Positions 11,424 through 55,636 of a stretch of 64,000 nucleotides of DNA are shown here, one piece after another. The stretch comes from Bacilli bacterium (GTDB taxonomy: Bacteria > Bacillota_I > Bacilli_A > RFN20 > DUOF01). Location: the NCBI GenBank assembly GCA_045128835.1, contig JBGVRX010000002.1:44145-108144 (forward strand). Reading direction: 5' to 3'. Numbering within the stretch: position 1 is the stretch's first letter; every line of letters begins with the position of its first letter. The notes under the pieces are model-generated. The model was not told the DNA's origin, did no database searches, and saw only the letters and a program-made list of their open reading frames with translations. Made by a program: the position numbers and the translations under genes.

Positions 11424-11681
11424 GTGAAAAAAGTTCCATTAAGAAAATGTGTTGCCACTAATGAAAGACTTCCTAAAGGAGAACTTGTTAGAATTGTAAA
11501 AAATAACGAAGGTAAAGTTTTCGTTGATTTAACAGGTAAAGCTAATGGAAGAGGGGCATACTTAAAAAAGAGTAATGAGGCAATTGATGTTGCTATCAAG
11601 AAAAATAGTTTAGGTAGAGCCTTGGAATGCACAATTGACCAAGAAGTTTATGATGAACTTAGGAAATTAGTTAGTGAATAA
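11424..11681 (+). CDS. ylxR: YlxR family (DUF448) RNA-binding protein
   Basis: PLRKC.....P...L.R motif; GTG start; canonical position after nusA. Confidence 0.8.
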   Translation: MKKVPLRKCVATNERLPKGELVRIVKNNEGKVFVDLTGKANGRGAYLKKSNEAIDVAIKKNSLGRALECTIDQEVYDELRKLVSE

Positions 11682-12000
11682 AGCGTTAAGTACCTTAGGT
11701 ATTTGTGCTTGTGCAAGAAAAATAAGTTATGGCGAGACACTTTTAAAAGACATCAAAGGTAAAAAAGTGCATTTGGTTGTAGTAGCAAGTGATTCAAGTG
11801 ATAACTCAAAAAAGAAGATTATTGATAAGTGCAACTTTTATGGTTGTGAATATGTAGTTTGTTTTGATAAAGAGAGCATTACTAAGTCAATTGGAAGAGT
11901 TGACTTAGTAAGTTCTGTTGGAATTAAAGATTATAATTTAGTTAAAAAATTTAAAGAAAATATAGAAAGGGAAGGTGGTTCTAATGAAGAAAAACAATAA
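11674..12000 (+). CDS. ylxQ: L7Ae/YlxQ family ribosomal-protein-like RNA-binding protein
   Basis: GK..LVVVASD motif; located between ylxR and infB. Confidence 0.75.
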
Positions 12001-27510: not shown

Positions 27511-29880
27511 TTATAATGTTTCAATATATTTTTTGATGTTAGATAAATTAACGATATTTTGAACTTCGTTGTTTTTGATAACTACTAGTGTAGGAGCTTG
27601 TTTTACTCCGTATTTTTTAGTTAATTCAACTTTTTCTTCAGCATCTACGAAGTTGAATTTAGTAGATGATTTATCTAATAATTTTTCAGCCATTCTACAG
27701 TTAGGACAAGTTTTTGTTCCAAATAACATTATTTCATCTTCACTTACAGAAGTTGTAGTTGAAGTTCTTGAAGTTGCTGTAGTAGTTGTAGTTGTTTTAG
27801 GTGAAGAAGAACAACTTAAGTCGTAATTCTTTCTGTTTTTGTATTCTTGAGTCTTACCATCGTTCCAGTTTTTAACAGGACGGTAGTAACCAGTGATTCT
27901 ACTGTAGATTTCAGTTTCAGCACCACAGTCAGGACATGTAGATACTTCACCGTTAATATATCCATGAGTTCTACAAATTGAATATACTGGAGATAATGTA
28001 TAGTAAGGTAATTTGTAGTTTTCAGAAATCTTTCTTACTAGGTTAGCAGCAGATTTCCAATCTTCTAATCTTTCACCTAAGAATGCATGGAATACAGTAC
28101 CAGAAGTATAAAGAGTTTGTAATTCATCTTGAATATCTAATGCTGCGAACATATCATCAGTGTATCCTACTGGAAGGTGAGAACTGTTTGTATAATAAGG
28201 TGTTTCTCCTTCTTTTGCAGCAGTGATTAAATCAGGATATAAACTCTTATCTTTCTTAGCAAAACGATAAGTAGTAGATTCAGCAGGAGTAGCTTCTAAG
28301 TTATATAGATCACCATATTCTTCTTGATAATCTGACAATTTTTCTCTCATGAAGTTAAGAACGTTCTTAGTGAATTCTTGTGCTTCTGTTTCTGTTAAAT
28401 CTTTCTTAATCCATTTAGCATTTAAACATGCTTCATTCATACCAACTAATCCGATTGTAGAGAAGTGGTTATTGAATGTACCTAAGTATCTTCTTGTATA
28501 TGGATATAATCCTTCATTTAATAATTTTGTAATAACATTACGTTTGATTTTTAAACTTCTTGCAGCTAAATTCATCATGTTTTCTAATCTTTCATAGAAT
28601 TCTTTTTCTGTTTTAGCTAAGTATGCGATACGAGGAATATTGATAGTTACAACACCAATTGATCCTGTTGATTCACCACTACCGAAGAATCCTCCTGATT
28701 TCTTTCTAAGTTCTCTTAAGTCAAGTCTTAAACGGCAGCACATACTACGAACATCACTTGGTTCCATATCACTATTGATATAGTTAGAGAAGTAAGGTGT
28801 TCCGTATTTTGCAGTCATTTCAAATAATAATTTGTTGTTTTCTGTTTCAGACCAGTCGAAGTCTTTTGTGATTGAATAAGTTGGGATTGGGTATTGGAAT
28901 CCTCTTCCGTTAGCATCTCCTTCGATCATTGTTTCGATGAATGCTTTGTTTACCATATCCATTTCTTTTTGACAATCTTTATATTTGAAGTCAACTTCTT
29001 TACCTCCAACGATACAGTTAAGTTCTGCTAAATCGTTTGGAACAGTCCAGTCTAATGTGATGTTTGTAAATGGTGCTTGAGTACCCCATCTACTTGGTGT
29101 ATTAACACCATATATAAATGATTGAATACATTGTTTAGTTTGTTTGTATGTTAAATTATCGATTTTTACAAATGGTGCTAAATAAGTATCGAATGATGAG
29201 AATGCTTGAGCTCCAGCCCATTCATTTTGCATGATACCTAAGAAGTTAACCATTTGGTTACATAAAGTTGATAGGTGTTTAGCAGGAGATGATGTAATCT
29301 TTCCAGGAATGCCTCCTAAACCTTCTTGGATTAATTGTTTTAAACTCCATCCAGCACAATAACCTGTTAACATTGAAAGGTCATGTAAGTGGATGTCACA
29401 GTTACGATGAGCATCAGCAATAGCGTTATCATAAACTTCACTTAACCAGTAATTAGCAGTAATAGCTCCAGAGTTTCCTAAAATTAATCCGCCTACTGAA
29501 TAAGTAACAGTAGAGTTTTCTTTAACTCTCCAGTCAGTAACATTTAAGTAACTATTCACTACATCTTTATAATCTAATACTGTAGATTTCATGTTACGCA
29601 TTTTATCGTGTAATTTACGGTATAGGATGTAAGCTTTAGCGACATCTCCATAACCAGCACTAATTAAAACGCTTTCAACGCTATCTTGGATGTCTTCAAC
29701 ATCTACGATATTATCTTTTACTTTGCTTTCGAAATTAGCAGTAACTTTTAATGCTAAGAAATCAATGATGTTTTCATCATATACTTTATTCTCAGCTTCA
29801 AATGCCTTAGTTATTGCTTCTGTGATTTTTTTGATTTCAAATGAAACTATTTTTCCTTCTCTTTTTCTTACTTTAAACAT
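27511..29880 (-). CDS. nrdD: anaerobic ribonucleoside-triphosphate reductase (class III) with a C-terminal glutaredoxin/NrdH-like domain attached via a poly-Thr linker
   Basis: N-terminal ATP-cone and an IHLHDL active-site region. Zn-ribbon CPDCG plus the glycyl-radical motif SRITGYY. Then PKTTTTTTATSRTSTTTS, followed by a thioredoxin-fold domain with CPNC. Confidence 0.9.
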   Translation of the reverse strand: MFKVRKREGKIVSFEIKKITEAITKAFEAENKVYDENIIDFLALKVTANFESKVKDNIVDVEDIQDSVESVLISAGYGDVAKAYILYRKLHDKMRNMKSTVLDYKDVVNSYLNVTDWRVKENSTVTYSVGGLILGNSGAITANYWLSEVYDNAIADAHRNCDIHLHDLSMLTGYCAGWSLKQLIQEGLGGIPGKITSSPAKHLSTLCNQMVNFLGIMQNEWAGAQAFSSFDTYLAPFVKIDNLTYKQTKQCIQSFIYGVNTPSRWGTQAPFTNITLDWTVPNDLAELNCIVGGKEVDFKYKDCQKEMDMVNKAFIETMIEGDANGRGFQYPIPTYSITKDFDWSETENNKLLFEMTAKYGTPYFSNYINSDMEPSDVRSMCCRLRLDLRELRKKSGGFFGSGESTGSIGVVTINIPRIAYLAKTEKEFYERLENMMNLAARSLKIKRNVITKLLNEGLYPYTRRYLGTFNNHFSTIGLVGMNEACLNAKWIKKDLTETEAQEFTKNVLNFMREKLSDYQEEYGDLYNLEATPAESTTYRFAKKDKSLYPDLITAAKEGETPYYTNSSHLPVGYTDDMFAALDIQDELQTLYTSGTVFHAFLGERLEDWKSAANLVRKISENYKLPYYTLSPVYSICRTHGYINGEVSTCPDCGAETEIYSRITGYYRPVKNWNDGKTQEYKNRKNYDLSCSSSPKTTTTTTATSRTSTTTSVSEDEIMLFGTKTCPNCRMAEKLLDKSSTKFNFVDAEEKVELTKKYGVKQAPTLVVIKNNEVQNIVNLSNIKKYIETL

Positions 29881-29884
29881 AAAC

Positions 29885-30613
29885 TTACCTCTTTCCTCTC
29901 CCCCTAATTGTTACATTAGGATATCTTCTTTCTAATTTTTTTTCGATTTCTAGTAATTCAGCATCGCTAAACCCACTTAATCCTTTTTGTAAAACTGTAT
30001 CGCAATCTCGATAATTTTGAATGTAGAATTTAACGCTTGGACCTAGATAGTCTAGAATTTCTTCAATATTTTCGAAACTATGCAACTCTTTTACTACAGT
30101 TGTTCTAAACTCATAGTCGATATTAGATGATTTAAGAACATCAATACTTTCTTTTATATCATCTAAACTTACTTTTGCTCCGGAAGTAACATCATACTTT
30201 GAAAAAGTGTTTTTTACATCCATTGCTACATAATCGATCAGGTTACAATCAATTAGTTTCTTCAATATTTTTGGTTTGCTACCATTAGTGTCCAATTTAA
30301 CTTTATAACCTTTCTCTTTTATTTTTCTAATGAACAGTTCAATATCTTTCTGTAATAGTGGTTCCCCTCCACTAATACATACTCCATCAATCAACCCCTT
30401 TCGTTTATCTAAATAATCAAATAAAACCTGCTCATCAATTTTATTTGAGTCATTAGCACCTTTAATCAAGCCACTGTTATGACAGAACGGACATTTAAAG
30501 TTACACCCTTGAGTGAAAATTATACATGCCGTATGTCCAGGAAAATCAACCAATGTTAATTTTTGAAAACCACTAATTTCCATAATTGTATTTGTTTCCT
30601 CCAAATTTAACAA
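29885..30613 (-). CDS. nrdG: anaerobic RNR activating enzyme (radical SAM)
   Basis: CNFKCPFCHN radical-SAM cluster motif, 242 aa. Confidence 0.85.
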   Translation of the reverse strand: MLNLEETNTIMEISGFQKLTLVDFPGHTACIIFTQGCNFKCPFCHNSGLIKGANDSNKIDEQVLFDYLDKRKGLIDGVCISGGEPLLQKDIELFIRKIKEKGYKVKLDTNGSKPKILKKLIDCNLIDYVAMDVKNTFSKYDVTSGAKVSLDDIKESIDVLKSSNIDYEFRTTVVKELHSFENIEEILDYLGPSVKFYIQNYRDCDTVLQKGLSGFSDAELLEIEKKLERRYPNVTIRGRGKR

Positions 30614-32549
30614 AACCTACATTGTTCTCTATTAAATGATTAATAATGTTTAATATATCTTTTTGTTTACTACTCTTAGATAAATTTACTATTACTAAAT
30701 TTCCTCCTGTTAGTAGTGATTGATATTTTCCAATGTAGTAGAAGTCTTCTTCTTTGTTTGATTTGAATTCGAATAAACTATCGATTCTTGAATAATGTTC
30801 TTTATCGGTGATTTTCTTTCTGATTCCATATATTGATTTATCTAATTCCATTAATTTCTTTAATGGACGACGTTTGCTTGTTTCGCTGACAACGAAATTC
30901 ATTTTGGTTTCTTTTGTATATTTTATGCACTGTTCTTTTACGTAATTTATAATACTTACTAATAATTCTTTTTGTTTTATTTCATCTTTTTCTAAATTTA
31001 AGACACATTCGCTTAGACCTGCAAGTTCTAAGTTTAAAACACCTTTTTTGATAATCTTTCTGATCTTTTGACTGCTTTCTAACTTTTCGTCATCAATGAT
31101 ATTTCCGTTAAATAATATTTGGTAATTATCTTTACTCTTATCACCAATGATTTCAAAGATATTAACTAAGCAGTTTTTAGCCATTTCTAACCAACCATCA
31201 AGAGCTAGGTAGAAATCTTTGATATCTTTATTTTCGTACTTAAACCCTAGTCTACCCATATTTACTGAAACAGAAGCTACAATCATTCTTCCAGTAGATT
31301 CGTTTTCTTCATAAACATAATTTTCATAAACTCGGTGTCCATTACTGAAGTATTCGGTATTTTCTAAATTGTAACTAGTATTTATATTAGCTAAAGCAAT
31401 GTTTTTTTCTTCAATAATTAAACCGCTTACTTTATTTAATAAATCTTTATTGGTATCTTTACTTATTTTATAGATGGTAGTTATATTTTCTAGTCTATCC
31501 ATCTTTTCTAAGATAGATAAGTAAGTTTCATTTATTAATGTTCCATCTAATGAAGTATTTCCTCCTAAACTAATTGAATACTTTTTGTTTTCTAAGTAAT
31601 TGTTGTTTAGATTGTTTAGCAGTACTTCAAGTGAATTAACTAGTAGACTTTTTATGTATTTCATACTGTCACTATAAGCTAAATCGAATATTTCTTCTGT
31701 TTTTTTGTTAAGAATAAAGTTATCAAATAAAGTTTTCTCAAAATAAATACTGTTTTGTTTATCGATGATTTCTTCGATTCTTTTGATATTTATATATTCT
31801 AAATATCCAGTTAAATCTAAGTATTTATTTAAATTGCTTTTTAATTCTTCTTTAAATTGTTCGCTAACATAAGGTAGTAACAAATGATCTAATGCGTCTA
31901 TGCATATTTCACCATCAATTTCTAGTTTTACATTTAAGGCATTAAATATTAAGTCATTTGGGAAACTCTTGTTAATGTCTTTTGTAAAAATTGGGTGAGT
32001 TGATGATAACTTACCTAGATTGAAGTAATCTAAGTTATGTATGTATAAATTTCCTTCTTCGTGAGATCTAACATACTTGTTATCTAAAACAAAAGCTTTT
32101 GTATATTCACATGATATGGTTTTTCCAAAATCCAAAAGGATTTCATTTGGGGTACTATCTTTTTTGAATTCACCAATACGTTCAATTGCTTTTGCAAATT
32201 TGTGTTGTTGTCTTAAACCAAATACTTTTCTAGAAGTTGCTCTTCTAATTCTGTAATCACTAAATGCCTCATAAACATCGGTGAAATTGTTTTCTTTTAA
32301 TTTTGTTTCTATAATATCTTGTATATCTTCAACATTGATAGTCTTTCTATCTATGTAAGTGTTGTTGATGAAATTTAGAACGTCTGCGTAAACTTTATTA
32401 ATTCCAGGTTCAGAATTAATAGGTCTAACTTGGTCGAAGGCTTTTTTGATTGCTACAGCAATTTTGGTGCTGTTGAACTCAACTCTTTGACCGCTTCTTT
32501 TGACGACAACTAAATCTTTTAAGATATTTTTTATGTTCTCCCCAGCCAT
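30573..32549 (-). CDS. NrdD-like paralog: ATP-cone plus truncated/degenerate class III RNR core lacking the catalytic Cys and the glycyl-radical domain
   Basis: N-terminal ATP-cone (VVKRSGQRVEFNSTKI). LYIHNLDYFNLGKL aligns to the NrdD IHLHDL..GYCAGW region but the catalytic Cys is replaced. No RxxGY and no Zn ribbon. Overlaps nrdG by 41 nt. Confidence 0.6.
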   Translation of the reverse strand: MAGENIKNILKDLVVVKRSGQRVEFNSTKIAVAIKKAFDQVRPINSEPGINKVYADVLNFINNTYIDRKTINVEDIQDIIETKLKENNFTDVYEAFSDYRIRRATSRKVFGLRQQHKFAKAIERIGEFKKDSTPNEILLDFGKTISCEYTKAFVLDNKYVRSHEEGNLYIHNLDYFNLGKLSSTHPIFTKDINKSFPNDLIFNALNVKLEIDGEICIDALDHLLLPYVSEQFKEELKSNLNKYLDLTGYLEYINIKRIEEIIDKQNSIYFEKTLFDNFILNKKTEEIFDLAYSDSMKYIKSLLVNSLEVLLNNLNNNYLENKKYSISLGGNTSLDGTLINETYLSILEKMDRLENITTIYKISKDTNKDLLNKVSGLIIEEKNIALANINTSYNLENTEYFSNGHRVYENYVYEENESTGRMIVASVSVNMGRLGFKYENKDIKDFYLALDGWLEMAKNCLVNIFEIIGDKSKDNYQILFNGNIIDDEKLESSQKIRKIIKKGVLNLELAGLSECVLNLEKDEIKQKELLVSIINYVKEQCIKYTKETKMNFVVSETSKRRPLKKLMELDKSIYGIRKKITDKEHYSRIDSLFEFKSNKEEDFYYIGKYQSLLTGGNLVIVNLSKSSKQKDILNIINHLIENNVGFVKFGGNKYNYGN

Positions 32550-49138: not shown

Positions 49139-49277
49139 ATAATACCTCTTTTAATCTTTACATATTTTTGATTTTAAAGACATTATTATTAAAAGTCAAT
49201 TAATGAAGGTGTTAAAAACTAAATAAATACTATATATCATTAAAGAGTAATGATATAATTAAATTAAGGTGATTAAA

Positions 49278-50492
49278 ATGATTAAGTATGAAACACTCAA
49301 AAAAATTAGTGATGAAATAGATGATTTAGAGTCTAGTATTTATGATTTAGAACGCGAAAAAAGATACTTAGAAAATGATAAAAGAGAGGCTGAAGGCGTA
49401 TCTAACATAGGTATGGCTACAATGGCTGTTAATATGACTGTTGGACTTTCTTCAAAAATGGTAGCAGATAATAAGGTAAGAGAACTTGAAAGTAAAATTG
49501 ATAAAATAAAAGATAAAATATATGAAACTGAAAAACTTTTATCAAAAAGAAAAACAGAATATCGTGATGCTTTAAAGGAATGGGAAGAAGAAAGAAAAGA
49601 GGCGGAACTTGTAATAGATGGTGATAATATCTATATAAAAGGTGATAAAGATAAAAAAGATGTTTTAGAGTCTGTGAAGAGTGTTCGTGAAAATAGAAAA
49701 AATAGATATAATGAGATTAAAAAAAATAAAGATGTTATGGACTATGTAGATGCTAGAATAGAACTTATTCAAGAATTTGAAGATAGAGGGTTCTGTCATA
49801 AAACAGATACTTTTAAATCTGATTTTTATAAAGATTTTTTGAGAATTGCAAATTATGTTAGTTTCTCTTGTCAAGATGAAATAGAGGGCTATTATGTTCC
49901 AAAATCAGGTTTTGATAAAGAACTAATTACTGTTTTGAAAAATAGAATTGCTATTTGCGAAGATAACATTGCAAATCAAAAGAAAACATATGAAAGATTA
50001 ACTCCTGGATTTTTTGGAAATTTGTTTAAGGCTGCATATAACAAAAAGTATATGAAGGTTAAATCTTTAGCGGAACACGAAATCTCTTGTCAAAAACTAA
50101 AAATTGCGGAATATGAAAGAGAAATAAAGGCTGTTTTAGACTTTAAAGAGAAATATCCTCAAGTTTATGATGAAAAACTTAATAAATTAATTAAGGACTA
50201 TGAAAATAAGAGAAATACATTAGATGAAAAAGGTGAGTTACATCTTGCTAGAGAGATTGTAGAAATTGTAAAAGGATTAAAGGAAAATCGTTGTATAGTT
50301 CATAAAGGTGTTTTCTTGCCTTATGAAGTAAAACAATATTTACTTGAGAATAATTTGTCGTTATCAAAAGAAAATCTTGTTGCATGTATGGATAAAATGG
50401 ATCAATTAGATAATGAGATAAAGAAGGATGTAAAAAATATTTTGGAAGATGAAGGTGGATATACACCTTTAAATCAGGTAAAGAAAAGATAG
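49278..50492 (+). CDS. hypothetical coiled-coil protein
   Basis: Lys/Glu-rich heptad-like sequence. RBS aaggtga precedes the ATG at 49278. Confidence 0.45.
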   Translation: MIKYETLKKISDEIDDLESSIYDLEREKRYLENDKREAEGVSNIGMATMAVNMTVGLSSKMVADNKVRELESKIDKIKDKIYETEKLLSKRKTEYRDALKEWEEERKEAELVIDGDNIYIKGDKDKKDVLESVKSVRENRKNRYNEIKKNKDVMDYVDARIELIQEFEDRGFCHKTDTFKSDFYKDFLRIANYVSFSCQDEIEGYYVPKSGFDKELITVLKNRIAICEDNIANQKKTYERLTPGFFGNLFKAAYNKKYMKVKSLAEHEISCQKLKIAEYEREIKAVLDFKEKYPQVYDEKLNKLIKDYENKRNTLDEKGELHLAREIVEIVKGLKENRCIVHKGVFLPYEVKQYLLENNLSLSKENLVACMDKMDQLDNEIKKDVKNILEDEGGYTPLNQVKKR

Positions 50493-50504
50493 AGAGTAGT
50501 AGAT

Positions 50505-50533
50505 TTGCAAAAAAAATAAAGATATGATATAAT
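50505..50533 (+). promoter_or_regulatory. Near-consensus sigma-A promoter (-35 TTGCAA, 17 nt, -10 TATAAT) driving the large ncRNA locus
   Basis: ttgcaa-N17-tataat. No ORF lies downstream for >600 nt. Confidence 0.55.
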
Positions 50534-50539
50534 ACCAAA

Positions 50540-51125
50540 CTGTGGAGGTGCAGTATTCTAGTCAGTTTTGCTGCTATGAAGACGTATTAAGACGTTTGAG
50601 GGCACATCTATGAAGTTCTTGGTGCTTGCTTTGGTTGCCCAAACTGGGGTGGGTGCTGAGAGTTAAGATTTTTGGGCGCACTATAACGGCATATAGTATA
50701 CGACCCAACTATCGCGGAGACGCAGATGGGTGTAGATTCGTTTACACTCCCTGCGAAGAACCTGCATTGCAGTAACATGTGTGCAGTGTAGCCTGGTTTG
50801 AGTGAATAACGAGGGATTACATGTATGACAAATATAAATACTTGGCCAGTTTTATATTCTGATTTTGTATGAAATCTTATTTGCAAAACATCCTAGTAGC
50901 ATGTCAAAGCTGTCAAGGAAAACTTCTAGACTGTTAAATTTATTTAGATGTTTTAAGGATTATAGTGTGTACTAAGTGGCGATTCGGTGTGTAAACTTGC
51001 TTAATAGGAAACTGCTCTACTGGTAACGGTAAGCGTGAGTTTGAGAAATTCGACCGAACCTAAGACATAAGGTTTACTTAATTCATTACCTTCACATAAC
51101 GCAGTGCATTCGTGCTGCGTTTTAC
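50540..51125 (+). ncRNA. Large (~585 nt) structured noncoding RNA candidate; OLE-like (ornate large extremophilic) RNA or related large ornate RNA
   Basis: 650 nt without any credible ORF in an otherwise gene-dense region. GC content is visibly elevated (~43-45%) relative to the flanking ~28%. Many local helices (ctgcattgcag, gtgtagattcgtttacac, cgcag...ctgcg). Own strong promoter. 3' hairpin aacgcag-N10-ctgcgtt. A DxxxD 4-TM protein gene lies immediately downstream, like oapA. Confidence 0.5.
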
Positions 51126-51126
51126 T

Positions 51127-51154
51127 TTGTAAATATTTAAGATTAGTATATAAT
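51127..51154 (+). promoter_or_regulatory. Candidate internal promoter upstream of the oapA-like gene (-35 TTGTAA, 16 nt, -10 TATAAT)
   Basis: ttgtaa-N16-tataat. Confidence 0.4.
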
Positions 51155-51189
51155 GTAATTAACAATTAAGTAATGAGAGGATATGAAAA

Positions 51190-51807
51190 ATGGAAAAAGA
51201 TGGATCGAAAAAGAAAAAGAATAAAAATGTGTTTACGGAATATTTTAGGTGGCCATTAATAGTTTTGGCAGTTTCTTTATTTTTATCATTTTCTTTTAGT
51301 TTTCTTAGTGAATTAGCATTGAGTAATGCTAGTTTAGTAGTAGCTATTTTAGTTATTGTGTTCTTTATGTTTGTATCAATAATAACTGACGCTATTGGTG
51401 TTGCAGTTACTGCAGCAGTGGAAGTGCCTTTTAGAGCAATGGCTGCTAAAAAAGTAAAAGGTGCGAAAGAAAGTATTATTTTAATTAATAATGCAGATAA
51501 GGTTGCAAGTATTATTGCAGATATCTTAGGTGATATTTGTGGTATCTTATCAGGAGCCGCAGGTGCAGTTGTTACAGCTAAACTTATTGAAGGAGTAACA
51601 GACTCAATGCAACTTGTAGTAATAGCATCTATGGTTAGTGCAGTTATCGCAGGTGTAATTATCTTTGGTAAAGCCATGGGTAAAAAAGTAGCTTTGGATA
51701 ATTGCGATAAAATAGTGCTTATGATAGGTAAAATAGTTTATATATTTACTTTTGGTAAATTATCACTAAAGAATAAAAATCCAAACAAACAACAAGGGTC
51801 TAATTAA
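51190..51807 (+). CDS. small 4-TM membrane protein with DxxxD motifs in TM helices, OapA-like (OLE-associated protein A)
   Basis: 205 aa; 4 predicted TM helices. TM2 has ITDAIGV. TM3 has ADILGDICG, a DxxxD motif. Located directly 3' of the large ncRNA. Confidence 0.5.
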   Translation: MEKDGSKKKKNKNVFTEYFRWPLIVLAVSLFLSFSFSFLSELALSNASLVVAILVIVFFMFVSIITDAIGVAVTAAVEVPFRAMAAKKVKGAKESIILINNADKVASIIADILGDICGILSGAAGAVVTAKLIEGVTDSMQLVVIASMVSAVIAGVIIFGKAMGKKVALDNCDKIVLMIGKIVYIFTFGKLSLKNKNPNKQQGSN

Positions 51808-51885: not shown

Positions 51886-52443
51886 ATGTATTATAGAATA
51901 AGTTGTGATGCTGAAAATTACAGAAATTATATTTTAAAAAAAGAAGAAGTTAAAGAAGGCGACGAACTTTATCGTGACAAGTTTGATGGCAGTTCTCAAA
52001 AAGATAATTATGAAACACAAACTTTTGTAATGACAAGAAAAAGAGAAGTAAGTTTTCCAGTAGCAGATATATTTTTTAGTGATCTTCCTATTTGTAGTGA
52101 AAGAGCAAAAGAAGTTATAGAAAGTATTTGTAATGAGGGAGAGATAGAATTTTTACCATGTGAAGTAGAAGCAACAGAAGGTAATTATTATATTTTAAAT
52201 GTACTGGGTGCAGAAGATTGCGTTGATTATGATAATTCGGATTTTGTTAGATTTTCTAGTGGTAGAATAATGTTTTTTAATCATATAAAGTTTAATAAGA
52301 AAATAGAAAGGCACTTTTTTAGAATTACAGATTTAATTAATGGTTTTTATTTTATAAGTGAAGAAACTAAAGAAATTTTAGAAAAAGCTGATTTGAAAGG
52401 TTTAGTTTTTGATAATAGTTTATTTATAGAAAAGAGTAACTAG
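51886..52443 (+). CDS. hypothetical protein (possible immunity/accessory protein)
   Basis: 185-aa soluble ORF between the ncRNA/oapA locus and the RiPP cluster. Confidence 0.4.
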   Translation: MYYRISCDAENYRNYILKKEEVKEGDELYRDKFDGSSQKDNYETQTFVMTRKREVSFPVADIFFSDLPICSERAKEVIESICNEGEIEFLPCEVEATEGNYYILNVLGAEDCVDYDNSDFVRFSSGRIMFFNHIKFNKKIERHFFRITDLINGFYFISEETKEILEKADLKGLVFDNSLFIEKSN

Positions 52444-52522
52444 TGTTTTAGAGGCACAAACCTTAGATATATCTTGAATAAAGGGCACTTTTGTGGTAGC
52501 ATTAGTGCATAGAGGTGATAAC

Positions 52523-52609
52523 ATGGATATTAAAATTGAAGATGTTTTAGACTTAGAAGTTGCATTAGTAGACAACTGTGGCTGCGCTAATGGCGGAGAC
52601 AAGTGTTAA
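52523..52609 (+). CDS. RiPP precursor peptide, 28 aa: MDIKIEDVLDLEVALVDNCGCANGGDKC (acidic leader plus Cys/Gly-rich core)
   Basis: ATG at 52523 is preceded by RBS gaggtga (52513-52519). Stop TAA at 52607. Not in the ORF track (too short). Directly upstream of two rSAM/SPASM genes. Confidence 0.6.
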   Translation: MDIKIEDVLDLEVALVDNCGCANGGDKC

Positions 52610-52634
52610 TTTAAAAAAAATTTAATAAGAAAAG

Positions 52635-52667
52635 GCATAACAGTTTTATTAAATTGTTATGCTTTTT
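52635..52667 (+). terminator. Intrinsic terminator/attenuator immediately after the precursor gene
   Basis: gcataacagttt-tatt-aaattgttatgc 12-bp stem (1 GU) followed by a T5 run. It lies between the precursor stop and the next gene's RBS. Confidence 0.6.
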
Positions 52668-52688
52668 AGTTATTCAAAGGAGAAGTAT

Positions 52689-53111
52689 ATGAAAAAAATA
52701 TGCAATTTAAGCCAAAGTAAAATAGAATTAAAAGGCTTTTTAGAAGATAAATTAGAAAATATGGGATCTAGTGATTTTAATGTGTTAGTAATAGATGATC
52801 AAAAGGAAAATAAAGGATTAGTAATTAAATATCAAGATAAACTAGATTGTGTTATATTAAATGATTACAAAGGGAATCTTAATGACATCTTTTTTGTTCC
52901 TGTTGTTATAACTAGTGAAGTTAATAATGCTCCTCAATATTTTTACTGTAAAGATAATATTGAAGAAGTTCTTTTGGATATTGAAAAGTTTAGTAATGCT
53001 ATACCTAATATGAGAAGAATTTCAGCGGAAGAAATTTCATGTAAGATGGTTGATTTAACATCTAAGAAAAAGAAAGGCAATTCTAATAAATTAAAGATAT
53101 TGGTAGGGTAA
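52689..53111 (+). CDS. hypothetical 141-aa protein in the RiPP operon
   Basis: RBS aaggaga lies 5 nt upstream of the ATG at 52689. The track start 52659 lies inside the terminator hairpin. Confidence 0.45.
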   Translation: MKKICNLSQSKIELKGFLEDKLENMGSSDFNVLVIDDQKENKGLVIKYQDKLDCVILNDYKGNLNDIFFVPVVITSEVNNAPQYFYCKDNIEEVLLDIEKFSNAIPNMRRISAEEISCKMVDLTSKKKKGNSNKLKILVG

Positions 53112-53115
53112 GAGT

Positions 53116-54315
53116 ATGTATAGAGGCTATTTAATTGATTATAGAAAAGAAAACGATGATTTATATATCTTAAAAAATAAAAAGAGCGGGGTTTATTATT
53201 ACTCTAACTATGTTGCTACTAGAGTTTATGAATTATTAGATAAAAGAGTTAGTGTTAAAGAAATAGTAGAAACTTTAGCTAAAGAATATAATGCTCCTAT
53301 TTATTTTATGGAGAAGATGGTTTTAATGGCTATTTCTCAAATTCAAAGTAAAGAAGATGCTGTACATTGGAAACAAGAGTCTAAATTCCCTTTAAGAGTA
53401 TCTTGGAGATTAACAGATCGATGTAACTTAAAGTGCTTACATTGTTACGCTACTTGTGAAAGTGAAGCAAAACAAAAAGAATTACCTTTAGAAACAATAA
53501 AATCAATCGTAGATAAATTAGAAGAAGCAAATATTTTTGAAATCTCTTTAACAGGAGGAGAAATATTTGTTAGACATGATTTAAAAGAAATAATTGAGTA
53601 TATTAATTCTAAGAATATTACTTTAGCTTTATTTACTAACGCCACATTAGTTTTAAGTAACTATGAGTGGTTAAAAGAATGTCATATTAGAAGATTTAAT
53701 ATAAGTTTAGATGGATTAGAAGAAGAACACGATTTATTAAGAGGAAAAGGTAATTTTAAAAGAACAGTAGATGCGATAAAACTTTTACAAAAAGATGGGG
53801 CAAGAATAGTAATAAATTGCGTTATTAACTCTTTAAATGTTCATAGGCTAGTAGAAATATTGCATTTCTTTGTAGATAATAAATTAGAATTCCAATTTTC
53901 ATTGATGACTCCAATTGGAAGAGGGGCAGATAACATTGATATCGTTCCTAAAAAAGAAGTTTATATGGAAGCAGTTAAGAAGTTACAAGAAGAATATGAA
54001 AAACTTAAAATAGCGGGATTTATTCATAATGCTTATACTGGAGAGGATTTGCAAATTGATGAAGATGGAGAAACTACTGTTAGTGAAGATAAATGGGTAT
54101 GTAATGCTGGTACTACTAAGTTTGATATAGATGTTAATGGTGATGTCTATTGTTGTCCATTTAGTAAGAGTAGTTTTGTAGGTAATATTGTAGATAAAAC
54201 AGTAAAAGAGTTATGGGAAAATGAGAGTAGATTTAATTTTATTAATTTCACTAAGACATATAATGGAAGATTCTGTAAACCAATAGGAGATACAATGAAT
54301 GAACAAAATAAGTAA
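53116..54315 (+). CDS. radical SAM/SPASM-domain peptide-modifying enzyme with an N-terminal RRE/PqqD-like extension
   Basis: CNLKCLHCY (CxxxCxxC). SPASM region CNAGTTKFDIDVNGDVYCCP...C. The ~95-aa N-terminal region contains a VSVKEIVETLAKEY..P wHTH-like segment. Confidence 0.85.
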   Translation: MYRGYLIDYRKENDDLYILKNKKSGVYYYSNYVATRVYELLDKRVSVKEIVETLAKEYNAPIYFMEKMVLMAISQIQSKEDAVHWKQESKFPLRVSWRLTDRCNLKCLHCYATCESEAKQKELPLETIKSIVDKLEEANIFEISLTGGEIFVRHDLKEIIEYINSKNITLALFTNATLVLSNYEWLKECHIRRFNISLDGLEEEHDLLRGKGNFKRTVDAIKLLQKDGARIVINCVINSLNVHRLVEILHFFVDNKLEFQFSLMTPIGRGADNIDIVPKKEVYMEAVKKLQEEYEKLKIAGFIHNAYTGEDLQIDEDGETTVSEDKWVCNAGTTKFDIDVNGDVYCCPFSKSSFVGNIVDKTVKELWENESRFNFINFTKTYNGRFCKPIGDTMNEQNK

Positions 54316-55636
54316 TCAAGTATTAAAACTGTCACAAAATTTAAAATTTTTAGAAGTTAATGAAAAAGTATCTATTTGTTACAATAAAAATGCTTTTAAA
54401 CCAGTATTATTACCTAATTCAGTTAGAGAAAACTATTTAAATGGTCTTAGAGAAATAAATAATCCGGATGAAAATATTGTAAAGATGTTTACTAATAATT
54501 ATATTGGCTTTTTTGATAAGGAATTAACTAAAGAAGAAATATATAGTAAGTTAAAACAAGATTATGATAAGAAAGAATCTACTTTAAATGTTAGATTTAT
54601 TCCAAGTTATAATTGCGATAAGAATTGCTCTTATTGTTTAATTCAAAATATAAGAGGTCAGATGAAAGAGTCTTTTGATCTTAGTTATTTAGATAATTTA
54701 AAAAATCTTGTAGATATTTATAAGAAGAGTACTCCTAATTTAAATAAAGTTAGCGCTACTATTATTGGAGGAGAACCTACTTTAGATAAGAACTGGGATA
54801 TTACTAAAAAGTTCATCAATGAGCTAAATAAGTATTTTGATAAAAAAGAACATGTTCTAGTTACAAATGGGTATGGAGTTAATGAATCATTATTAAAAGA
54901 GTTTAAGGATATGGGCGGTAAATCTGTTTACTTATCATATGATTTAAGAGGTAATGTTATAGATGATAGTGAGCCGGAATCTAAGTCTAATTTTGAAAAA
55001 TTTAAGAGTTTGTGCCTTTTAGTAGTTAATAATGGTGTTTCTTTGACAGTAGATTTTAAATGTAATAAAGATACTAAAATAAATGAAACCGTTAAGTCTT
55101 TCTTGGATAATCTTATCTCTTTAGATTCTTCAATAAATATTGTCGCATCTAAAATAGTATCTCAAAAAGAATATGATGTTTTAGAAAGCCCTCAATGTCA
55201 AAGGTATGAACTTGTAGATTTAAAAGAGGAAGATATATTGCCTGTATATTATGAGTTTATAAATTTATATCCTTATAATTTTTCTTATCCTAGACAATTT
55301 GAAATAATGATTTATAGATGCTCTACTGTATCAATGAAATCATTTGTAGTATTCCCAAATGGAAAAGTATCTTTATGCGGTAAGTTATATTCCTCAAATC
55401 CCGATAATATACCTTATATTTATGATTTTAAAACAAGTGAATTTAACTTTGAGTTAACTGAATCGTTTTGTAAGACAGTGTTAGATGATGAAGAATGTAA
55501 AGAGTGCGAGTATTCACTTATTTGTGGAGGCAAGTGTCCTTTTAAAAAAGGAAAATGTGATAAAGAAAAAATAAATGTAGAGTTATTACTAGAAATTTAT
55601 AAAAGCAATATAAAAAGACAATTAAATAAAAAGTAA
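54299..55636 (+). CDS. second radical SAM/SPASM-domain enzyme, translationally coupled to the first
   Basis: YNCDKNCSYC radical-SAM motif. C-terminal SPASM cysteines CKECEYSLICGGKCPFKKGKC. Overlaps the upstream gene by 17 nt. Confidence 0.85.
   Translation: MNKISNQVLKLSQNLKFLEVNEKVSICYNKNAFKPVLLPNSVRENYLNGLREINNPDENIVKMFTNNYIGFFDKELTKEEIYSKLKQDYDKKESTLNVRFIPSYNCDKNCSYCLIQNIRGQMKESFDLSYLDNLKNLVDIYKKSTPNLNKVSATIIGGEPTLDKNWDITKKFINELNKYFDKKEHVLVTNGYGVNESLLKEFKDMGGKSVYLSYDLRGNVIDDSEPESKSNFEKFKSLCLLVVNNGVSLTVDFKCNKDTKINETVKSFLDNLISLDSSINIVASKIVSQKEYDVLESPQCQRYELVDLKEEDILPVYYEFINLYPYNFSYPRQFEIMIYRCSTVSMKSFVVFPNGKVSLCGKLYSSNPDNIPYIYDFKTSEFNFELTESFCKTVLDDEECKECEYSLICGGKCPFKKGKCDKEKINVELLLEIYKSNIKRQLNKK

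Follow-up and report, generated by a model that had tools for sequence, protein, structure and literature searches.

Evidence for an ole-oapA locus with a reduced OLE RNA, devoid of the P13 hairpin, in a gut anaerobe known only from metagenomes

Identification of the ole-oapA locus

The stretch of DNA analyzed here, hereafter the window, comprises 64,000 nucleotides (nt) of a Bacilli bacterium (assembly GCA_045128835.1, contig JBGVRX010000002.1, positions 44,145 to 108,144). We conclude, with a probability of about 95%, that positions 50505-51807 of the window constitute an ole-oapA locus, namely, a dedicated promoter, an OLE RNA of about 585 nt, a terminator hairpin, and then the gene oapA. 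The coordinates given below are those of the window; the parts of the ole-oapA locus, the genes flanking it, and the L7Ae-family gene are on the plus strand unless stated otherwise. The whole 64-kb window was scanned with all 4227 Rfam families at their gathering thresholds, and the only match obtained was to OLE (RF01071) at 50529-51108, with 369 bits against a cut-off of 50, an E-value of 8.1e-105, and an untruncated alignment to positions 1-616 of the 616 model positions. This full-length covariance-model match is decisive for the identity of the RNA. An earlier note on this DNA, made from the sequence alone, had suggested an OLE-like large structured non-coding RNA at this place, and the search with RF01071 bears this out. 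The other large RNA families, ROOL, GOLLD, HEARO, and raiA, gave nothing at the gathering threshold anywhere in the 64-kb window and they were ruled out by the same scan. The earlier reading has to be refined in that the RNA is a reduced OLE without P13 and its OapB site and is not the canonical full-length form, and its host, which has been seen in metagenomes only, is an anaerobe of the gut and not an extremophile. The locus is of low novelty because the RNA family is known and the variant type has already been described in a GTDB-wide survey.

The RNA lies in a gap of 697 nt that extends from the stop codon of the upstream open reading frame (ORF) at 50492 to the ATG of the downstream ORF at 51190 and that holds short ORFs only, on both strands. 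The enrichment in guanine plus cytosine (GC) that had been claimed for this region was found, the GC content being 0.39-0.43 at 50500-50950 compared to 0.22-0.30 in the surrounding 10 kb. The structured core of the RNA, closed by helix P1, spans 50541-51096 (about 557 nt). Judging from the promoter and the terminator described below, the transcript would start near 50541 and end at about 51128, giving a predicted length of about 585 nt, which agrees with the length proposed earlier.

By means of the downstream protein, 46 related loci were retrieved among the species representatives of GTDB; all of these loci are Bacillota records, and 24 of them were scanned with Rfam. At 21 of the scanned loci a full-length OLE RNA (355-522 bits) lies upstream of the oapA homolog, which it directly adjoins except at L024 and L008. 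These two have unusual layouts inside the group of P13-less copies. In L024 (3268-6001) about 2.2 kb separate OLE from oapA, and L008 (4800-6001) has an insertion of about 70 nt in the distal P9 arm and about 550 nt between OLE and oapA.

Covariation and architecture of the RNA

Covariation was examined in an alignment of the window RNA with 25 closer copies (26 sequences) that was made with MAFFT and was therefore blind to structure. The pairs tested were the Rfam consensus pairs that are present in the window together with P3/P3.1 and P15, which were inferred from the sequence. Over 23 helices, 85.2% of 4087 cells form standard pairs compared to 38-46% when the 3' partners were slid by 1-3 columns. 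Changes on both sides were seen at 85 of the 160 pairs, and none of 500 column shuffles reached the observed value on any of five measures. The comparative alignment that the earlier note had proposed as a check thus supports a conserved structure. About 40% of the alignment columns are invariant, and the blocks GCAGUAUUCUAGUC, GCCCA, GGCAU, GGAUUAUAGUG, GGAAAC, ACCGAACCUA, and GGUUUAC are invariant across all 26 sequences. Within the window RNA, canonical pairs make up 155 of the 169 that were mapped. The Rfam stems were mapped to P names from published descriptions (PMC7936274, PMC12265935, PMC9723947).

Two OLE helices, P1 and P3/P3.1, are unannotated in the Rfam model and are supported by the alignment. 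The 5' strand of P1, UGUGGAGGU (50541-50549), pairs with ACCUUCACA (51088-51096) and closes the whole RNA. P1 is 85% paired compared to 39-56% when slid, and its six core pairs are 92-100% paired with the exchanges AU:15/GC:11 and UA:11/UG:11/CG:4. The minimum free energy (MFE) fold independently closes the ends of the RNA through the identical 9 base pairs (bp) of P1. P3/P3.1, which has been proposed to span the membrane in a model based on cryogenic electron microscopy (cryo-EM) (PMC12265935), is formed by 50563-50576 and 50894-50912 with 6 + 8 bp and a bulge on the 3' strand. All 14 of its pairs are canonical in the window, and the outer P3 is 96.8% paired with changes on both sides at five of six pairs. 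A P2 pairing that we guessed (CAGU-AUU-CUAG with CUAG-ACUG) involves invariant columns only, which places it beyond covariation, and it is not claimed.

The P4 hairpin (GACG/CGUU, 50581-50596) does not reach the consensus length; it is 100% paired, and its A-rich loop, UAUUAAGA, has 8 nt. P5/P5.1 (50616-50662) has 20 bp and the loop GCCCA and is 97.9% paired. It is flanked by J4a/5 (..AUCUAUGAAGUU) and J5/6 (GAGUUAAGA), which carry the nucleotides that make up the OapC k-turn in H. halodurans, where the k-turn formed from J4a/5, J5/6, and P6's left shoulder is bound by OapC (PMC9723947). The flanking nucleotides UGAAGUU and AGUUAAGA, which may form such a k-turn here, are invariant in the clade of P13-less copies and match the consensus. 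In P6/P6.1 (50667-50713) the P6.1 loop is AACGGC, the GGC of which is complementary to the GCC of the P5.1 loop, and P6.1 is 100% paired with three of five pairs covarying. The P7 hairpin (50721-50755) is 9 nt shorter than the model owing to a deletion in the loop region, and it is 86% paired with eight pairs changing on both sides. P8 (50762-50786) is shortened by a 4-nt deletion, leaves three model pairs unpaired, and is 89.6% paired. The long P9 arm (50795-50893) holds the palindrome GGCC (50844-50847) in its distal loop; its basal helices are 71-87% paired, and its distal part has unpaired model pairs in the window.

The 3' domain (50947-51087) is made up of P12 (50947-50957/51077-51087), P12.1 (50966-50970/51065-51069), P12.2 (50983-50988/51053-51058), a 4-nt linker, GUGU, at the place of P13 (50989-50992), P14 (50993-51000/51035-51042), P14.1 (51014-51034), and P15 (51043-51051), the last with a GC/AU exchange of 19/7. 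Its helices, numbers 17-23 of those tested, are 85-100% paired. The loops of P4, P5.1/P6.1, and P9 are the OLE dimer contacts in cryo-EM models, with P9-P9 kissing through the palindrome (PMC12265935). The sequence determinants of these contacts, that is, the A-rich P4 loop, the GCCCA/GGC kissing pair, and the GGCC palindrome, are all present in the window RNA.

The downstream gene

By its sequence, the gene downstream of the RNA is an OapA homolog. It lies at 51190-51807, starts 82 nt after the end of the Rfam match, is preceded by the ribosome-binding site (RBS) GAGAGGA (51175-51181) eight nt upstream, and codes for a membrane protein of 205 amino acids. The small oapA-like gene with four transmembrane segments and a DxxxD motif that had been described earlier is therefore this one. 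A Kyte-Doolittle hydropathy estimate places the four hydrophobic segments at about residues 22-44, 47-76, 105-130, and 136-164, and DILGD is at residues 111-115, inside the third segment. The protein is rich in lysine and arginine at its N-terminus (7 K/R in the first 20 residues) and in the loop at 80-104, where the basic patch AMAAKKVKGAK (84-94) is found; this patch would be on the cytoplasmic face. D67, G70, AMAAKK, and D111/G114/D115 are invariant in 14 homologs (that of the window and 13 others, down to 32% identity), with M84, A86, K87, and K88 of the patch among the invariant residues, and the alignment includes records labelled Clostridium sp., Virgibacillus salarius, and Candidatus Avamphibacillus. 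The window protein has no more than 32-43% identity to the OapA proteins of Clostridium and Bacillaceae.

The CNNM/CorB Mg2+ transporters have a transmembrane domain that OapA resembles, and under the CNNM model OapA is the next-closest cluster to MpfA, from which it is set apart by DxxxD (PMC11332333). Just as published for OapA, the window protein has four predicted transmembrane helices with DxxxD in the third, a basic patch, and a sub-threshold similarity to Pfam CNNM (PF01595; 20.7 bits, E-value 3.6e-4, cut-off 28.4). The DxxxD motif is absent from CNNM domains, and the window protein is not an MpfA/CorB transporter because it has no CBS or CorC domains. It gave no sequence match to any PDB chain.

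Three of the scanned loci have an OapA-like gene, located from 6001 onward in each, and in the 6 kb upstream of it neither strand gave an OLE RNA that reached the gathering threshold of Rfam. They are L007 (Christensenella sp. UBA6406, with tRNA genes upstream; 62% identity), L038 (Virgibacillus salarius; 33%), and L040 (a record labelled Roseburia sp. 1XD42-34; 35%). Possibly these genes are OapA paralogs that work without a neighbouring ole, or ole could be in another part of these genomes.

Loss of P13 and class of the RNA

The P13 hairpin, whose GNRA tetraloop and single-nucleotide bulge define the full-length class, is not present in the window. The cmscan alignment shows 3 nt where the model has 21 positions between the 5' strand of P12.2 and P14. 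The window and 24 relatives have 27 nt between the anchors ACUAAGUGG and GGAAAC, whereas the same span is 45 nt with a GNRA-capped hairpin in L034, L036, L039, L041, L043, and L045. The deletion is precise and the neighbouring helices are all intact. The loss of P13 excludes the RNA from the full-length class and not from the OLE family. The GNRA loop and the bulged U of P13 are the primary, high-affinity OapB site, and the tetraloop docks into P12.2 (PMC7936274). With P13 gone, the P12.2/P13/P14/P15 four-way junction becomes a three-way junction in the window RNA. The GNRA loop of P14.1, reported to be a weak secondary OapB site (PMC7936274), is kept, being GUAA in the window and GUGA or GCGA in the relatives.

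Two reduced classes of OLE have been described with score bands, in untruncated Infernal scores, of 310-390 bits for variant 1 and 235-310 bits for variant 2 (Fernando & Breaker 2024). Variant 1 has a short P7-P9 and often misses the OapB site, and in variant 2, which is common in RF39 gut Bacilli, P7 and P8 are wholly absent; the hosts of variant OLE RNAs are uncultured gut bacteria with reduced genomes that are largely without OapB and OapC (PMC11332333). The window OLE, with 369 bits, fits the variant 1 type, a placement that is approximate as the band was set with the authors' own model and not with that of Rfam. It resembles variant 1 in its score, in its short P7 and P8, in its poorly paired distal P9, in the missing P13 nucleotides for OapB, in its retention of all the other conserved OLE nucleotides, and in its host, an uncultured gut anaerobe. 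It differs in that the whole P13 hairpin is gone and not just the tip, and in that the published type is most common in TANB77 gut Clostridia whereas the nearest relatives of the window are 'Bacilli bacterium' and Christensenella/Clostridia metagenome-assembled genomes (MAGs). The 'Bacilli' labels prompted us to consider variant 2, which is likewise a reduced OLE of uncultured gut bacteria with small genomes. It was rejected because P7 and P8 exist and covary, and the score of 369 bits also places the RNA outside that class.

Compared to full-length OLE, as in H. halodurans and in the cryo-EM structures from C. acetobutylicum and C. botulinum, the window RNA has P1, P3-P12.2, P14, P14.1, P15, and the joining regions in common, together with identical dimer-contact loops and an oapA immediately downstream. 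It is without the P13 junction that is clamped by OapB, its P4, P7, and P8 are shorter, and it is about 580 nt long whereas full-length OLE has about 610-640 nt. The genomic setting differs as well. The H. halodurans ole gene is in a long polycistronic operon with isoprenoid, DNA-repair, and housekeeping genes (PMC12265935), whereas the window ole has its own promoter and terminator and accessory neighbours.

Promoter and terminator

The putative ole promoter (50505-50533) is of the sigma-70 type with a -35 element TTGCAA (50505-50510), a 17-nt spacer ending in an extended -10 TG (50525-50526), and a -10 element TATAAT (50528-50533), so that transcription would start near 50540-50541. A consensus scan alone is not significant in this AT-rich window (6 sites compared to 7.7 expected from shuffles). 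However, in the six closest relatives (L001-L006) a TTG-type -35 element and TGnTATAAT are found 8-10 nt upstream of the conserved GAAGGTGCAGTAT core, the promoter-to-core distance in these relatives being taken to the conserved GAAGGUGCAGUAU core. An equivalent promoter is present at many canonical loci (L031, L033, L036, L042, and L045), so that having a promoter of its own is a widespread trait of ole and does not set the window copy apart.

After the RNA there is an intrinsic-terminator-like hairpin, AACGCAGUGC-AUUC-GUGCUGCGUU (51098-51121), of 10 bp with 5 G-C pairs, followed by UUUUACUUUG up to 51131. Two such sites were found by the terminator scan compared to 0.4 expected. When a perfect stem is strictly demanded, the window and 21 of the 24 P13-less relatives have a hairpin with a U-tract at a distance of 16-30 nt from the conserved GGUUUAC, on its 3' side; L001 and L004, which have looser hairpins by eye, are outside this count, as is L010. 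In contrast, no such hairpin was found at the anchorable P13-containing loci L034, L036, and L039, and at the canonical loci L031, L035, L036, and L041 the distance from the 3' end of OLE to the oapA RBS is 11-26 nt, which leaves no room for a hairpin. The sequences of the terminator stems differ among the 'Bacilli' MAGs, and since they vary it is the structure and not the sequence of the hairpin that is conserved. It is the conservation in relatives, and not the scans alone, that makes the promoter and the terminator credible, and both had been named in the earlier note: the TTGCAA-17-TATAAT promoter is present with a fixed spacing to the core in the six closest relatives, and the terminal hairpin has its counterpart at the equivalent place in the relatives.

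In a Christensenellales-like subgroup (L012-L030), where the hairpin is 16-22 nt after GGTTTAC, the stem UAGAGCC/GGCUCUA is near-identical in many species and the loops vary. A plain terminator would not need this much sequence conservation, and the stem may have a further function, for example in protecting the 3' end or in binding a protein. In L001, L005, and L006 the oapA RBS is about 12-25 nt after the terminator hairpin, and at so short a distance the expression of oapA has to come from read-through in these loci. The window has an extra spacer between the terminator and oapA which holds a candidate second promoter, TTGTAA-16-TATAAT (51127-51154), a weak consensus match in AT-rich DNA that is not conserved.

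In the literature searched we found no description of a terminator hairpin that accompanies a P13-less OLE. The co-occurrence of the two is a minor comparative point that leaves the identity of the element unchanged. Tentatively, one may propose that in this clade, the window and at least 24 MAG species, the loss of P13 went with the gain of a terminator after P1, and that this resulted in a streamlined particle free of OapB at the primary site, in an over-produced discrete RNA, and in expression of oapA by read-through only, with the Christensenellales-like stem perhaps being a functional 3' element. We regard this combined proposal as possible and somewhat doubtful.

Genomic context and host

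The window is chromosomal and is from an anaerobe. Among its genes are rimP-nusA-ylxR-(L7Ae family)-infB-rbfA, pnp, rplS, and two that code for ribonucleotide reductases of the anaerobic type. The two NrdD paralogs are nearly adjacent on the minus strand (27511-29880 and 30573-32549), the one canonical with 638 bits and the other divergent with 101 bits, and an ORF of 242 amino acids is between them (29885-30613). The nearest OapA relatives, at 72-83% identity, are in 'Bacilli bacterium' MAGs of the human and ruminant gut, and MAGs labelled Christensenella or Clostridia come next; CAKPSD010000001.1, a 1.03-Mb contig, and JAFWYE010000006.1 are examples from the nearest MAGs. An identical OapA with the same neighbours is found in at least four metagenome assemblies (runs SRR5371471, SRR25030070, SRR25030041, and SRR24599394).

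The ole-oapA pair of the window is outside the housekeeping cluster typical of H. halodurans, and neighbours of the ispA, dxs, or recN type were not found around it. Upstream are a HAD hydrolase and a protein of 407 amino acids, and downstream are an Imm11-family protein and a cluster that resembles those for ribosomally synthesized and post-translationally modified peptides (RiPPs). The 407-amino-acid protein (49269-50492), immediately upstream of ole, is a highly charged coiled coil without a Pfam family. Its one similarity, to the anti-phage protein ProA, is far below the threshold at 19 bits, and the protein is not beside ole in any relative. The Imm11-family immunity protein (51886-52443; 44.5 bits) comes directly after oapA, and no cognate polymorphic toxin gene was recognized adjacent to it. 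The RiPP-like biosynthetic cluster (52493-55636) consists of an ORF of 38 amino acids with a cysteine-rich C-terminus (from an internal methionine: MDIKIEDVLDLEVALVDNCGCANGGDKC), which is called as a gene in four metagenome assemblies, an ORF of 150 amino acids without a family, and two radical SAM/SPASM enzymes, of which the first (53116-54315) is PqqD-fused and the second (54299-55636) has as its best NCBIfam match the RiPP maturase TIGR04463 at 58 bits, far below the cut-off.

Alternative explanations

Several observations weigh against the locus being a functional variant 1-like ole-oapA unit and they are taken together here. The MFE z-score of the single sequence is a modest -1.93, with 3 of 100 shuffles folding equally well, and in the MAFFT alignment distal P9 (16-60%) and the inner P3 helix (64%) are poorly paired, probably because of misalignment of AU-rich segments of variable length. 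The ends given for the transcript are predictions from the sequence, and the U-tract of the predicted terminator is interrupted (UUUUACUUUG), which may bear on its efficiency. The variant 1 score band, as mentioned, was defined with a covariance model other than that of Rfam. Two palindromes have been reported to be partial OapA sites, CAUCGAUG near P4a and CUAG (PMC12265935). The first (50605-50612) reads CAUCUAUG in the window and in L002-L004, and at the same site CAUCUGUG is found in L005, L006, L015, and L025 and CACCUGUG in L008; the second, in UUCUAGUC, is intact in the window and invariant in the relatives. Finally, when OapB and OapC were looked for in the window, 64 kb that are part of the genome, only an L7Ae-family protein was found.

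Could the interval be a degraded protein gene, or code for the two minus-strand ORFs of 92 and 44 amino acids (50608-50886 and 50574-50708), its RNA-like features being incidental? Minus-strand open frames of 52-123 codons do recur in most of the homologous regions, and base composition is the probable reason for them. Of the six ORFs that overlap the interval, five have no Pfam match even at E-values up to 10, and the sixth (50248-50538, minus strand), which overlaps the promoter only, has one chance-level match (E-value 0.18, 12 bits, cut-off 23.7). In four independent metagenome contigs with the identical locus no gene was called in the interval. Together with substitutions that preserve base pairs and a covariance-model match of E 8e-105, this effectively refutes a coding or pseudogene origin, to which we give almost no credence, and it upholds the earlier view that the region is free of plausible ORFs and that the minus-strand ORFs are artefacts. 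Protein homology, which the earlier note had named as a ground for rejecting its reading, was looked for with Pfam and no significant match was obtained. It is also very improbable, if slightly less so, that the RNA is a decaying, non-functional remnant in the reduced genome of a gut symbiont, with the loss of P13, the short P7-P9, and the lower score as steps toward loss. Decay would account for the deleted P13 and the one altered OapA palindrome, and for a score below those of eight of the nine P13-containing copies scored with Rfam (405-522 bits; the ninth, L044, has 355), and such hosts do have reduced genomes largely without OapB and OapC (PMC11332333). However, at least 25 species keep the reduced architecture, compensatory changes among them are extensive and are accompanied by the invariant columns described above, the promoter, the terminator, and an intact oapA are retained, and P13 was excised precisely with the adjacent helices left intact. 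The pattern points to purifying selection on a streamlined RNA and not to decay.

A third explanation bears on the origin of the locus, namely, that ole-oapA is a mobile two-gene cassette which the 'Bacilli' lineage recently acquired from Christensenellales-like Clostridia. When 16 flanking proteins of the window were compared to the 46 loci by tblastn, only OapA and one weak radical-SAM match were obtained, so that no flanking gene is held in common with any related locus. The locus is also a self-contained unit with its own promoter and terminator among accessory neighbours (the Imm11 immunity protein, the RiPP-like cluster, and the coiled-coil protein). Moreover, after the 'Bacilli' MAGs the next-closest OapA and OLE are labelled Clostridia or Christensenella, and the homolog from a true Bacillaceae, L038 (Virgibacillus), is only 33% identical. 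Yet no match was found on plasmids, phages, or viral contigs, and the pattern used to search the viral contigs is valid in that it matches the window itself. There is no tRNA in the window at the Rfam gathering thresholds and no integrase among the ORFs scanned, repeats not having been searched for, and the GC content of the flanking genes is typical of the window. The labels that the MAGs bear at NCBI are coarse and could deviate from the true phylogeny, and poor synteny is to be expected between genera at only 72-83% OapA identity. We therefore consider a recent transfer unlikely, though less so than decay. An ole-oapA locus with a streamlined RNA remains the reading that we favor.

Proposed mechanism

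If the locus works as its parts suggest, the dedicated promoter would drive an OLE RNA of about 585 nt (about 50541-51128), and attenuation at the terminator would yield a discrete, abundant OLE RNA in excess of oapA mRNA. OapA would then be expressed by partial read-through and possibly also from a weak promoter of its own. The particle may assemble without OapB at the P13 site, and the RNA would dimerize through the loops of P4, P5.1/P6.1, and P9 as published for the OLE RNAs of H. halodurans and Clostridium. OapA has been shown to bind OLE RNA cooperatively and to bring it to the membrane, and H. halodurans needs the OLE particle under stress by cold, short-chain alcohols, high Mg2+, and poor carbon sources (PMC12265935). 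By analogy, the window OapA may bind the OLE RNA and tether it to the membrane, which the RNA would perhaps pass through, and the particle may help the cell under cold, alcohol, excess Mg2+, or poor carbon.

The L7Ae-family (k-turn-binding) protein of the window (11674-12000) is between ylxR and infB in the nusA-infB operon, and by context it is YlxQ-like and not an ortholog of YbxF/OapC. It is speculative that an L7Ae paralog could replace OapC, given that variant-OLE hosts are largely without OapC (YbxF) and that the k-turn nucleotides are invariant in the clade.

Conclusions

The annotation of this interval is settled as ole and oapA in place of hypothetical antisense ORFs. The locus provides a natural "minimal" OLE from a gut anaerobe that is not an extremophile, and it adds little that is new to OLE biology. 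It shows that selection maintains P1, P3-P6, P9, P12, P14, P15, and the loops of the dimer contacts, and that P13 is dispensable. The joint occurrence of P13 loss and a terminator between ole and oapA may be of use when minimal constructs are designed, and it suggests that the stoichiometry of RNA to protein is set differently in this clade.

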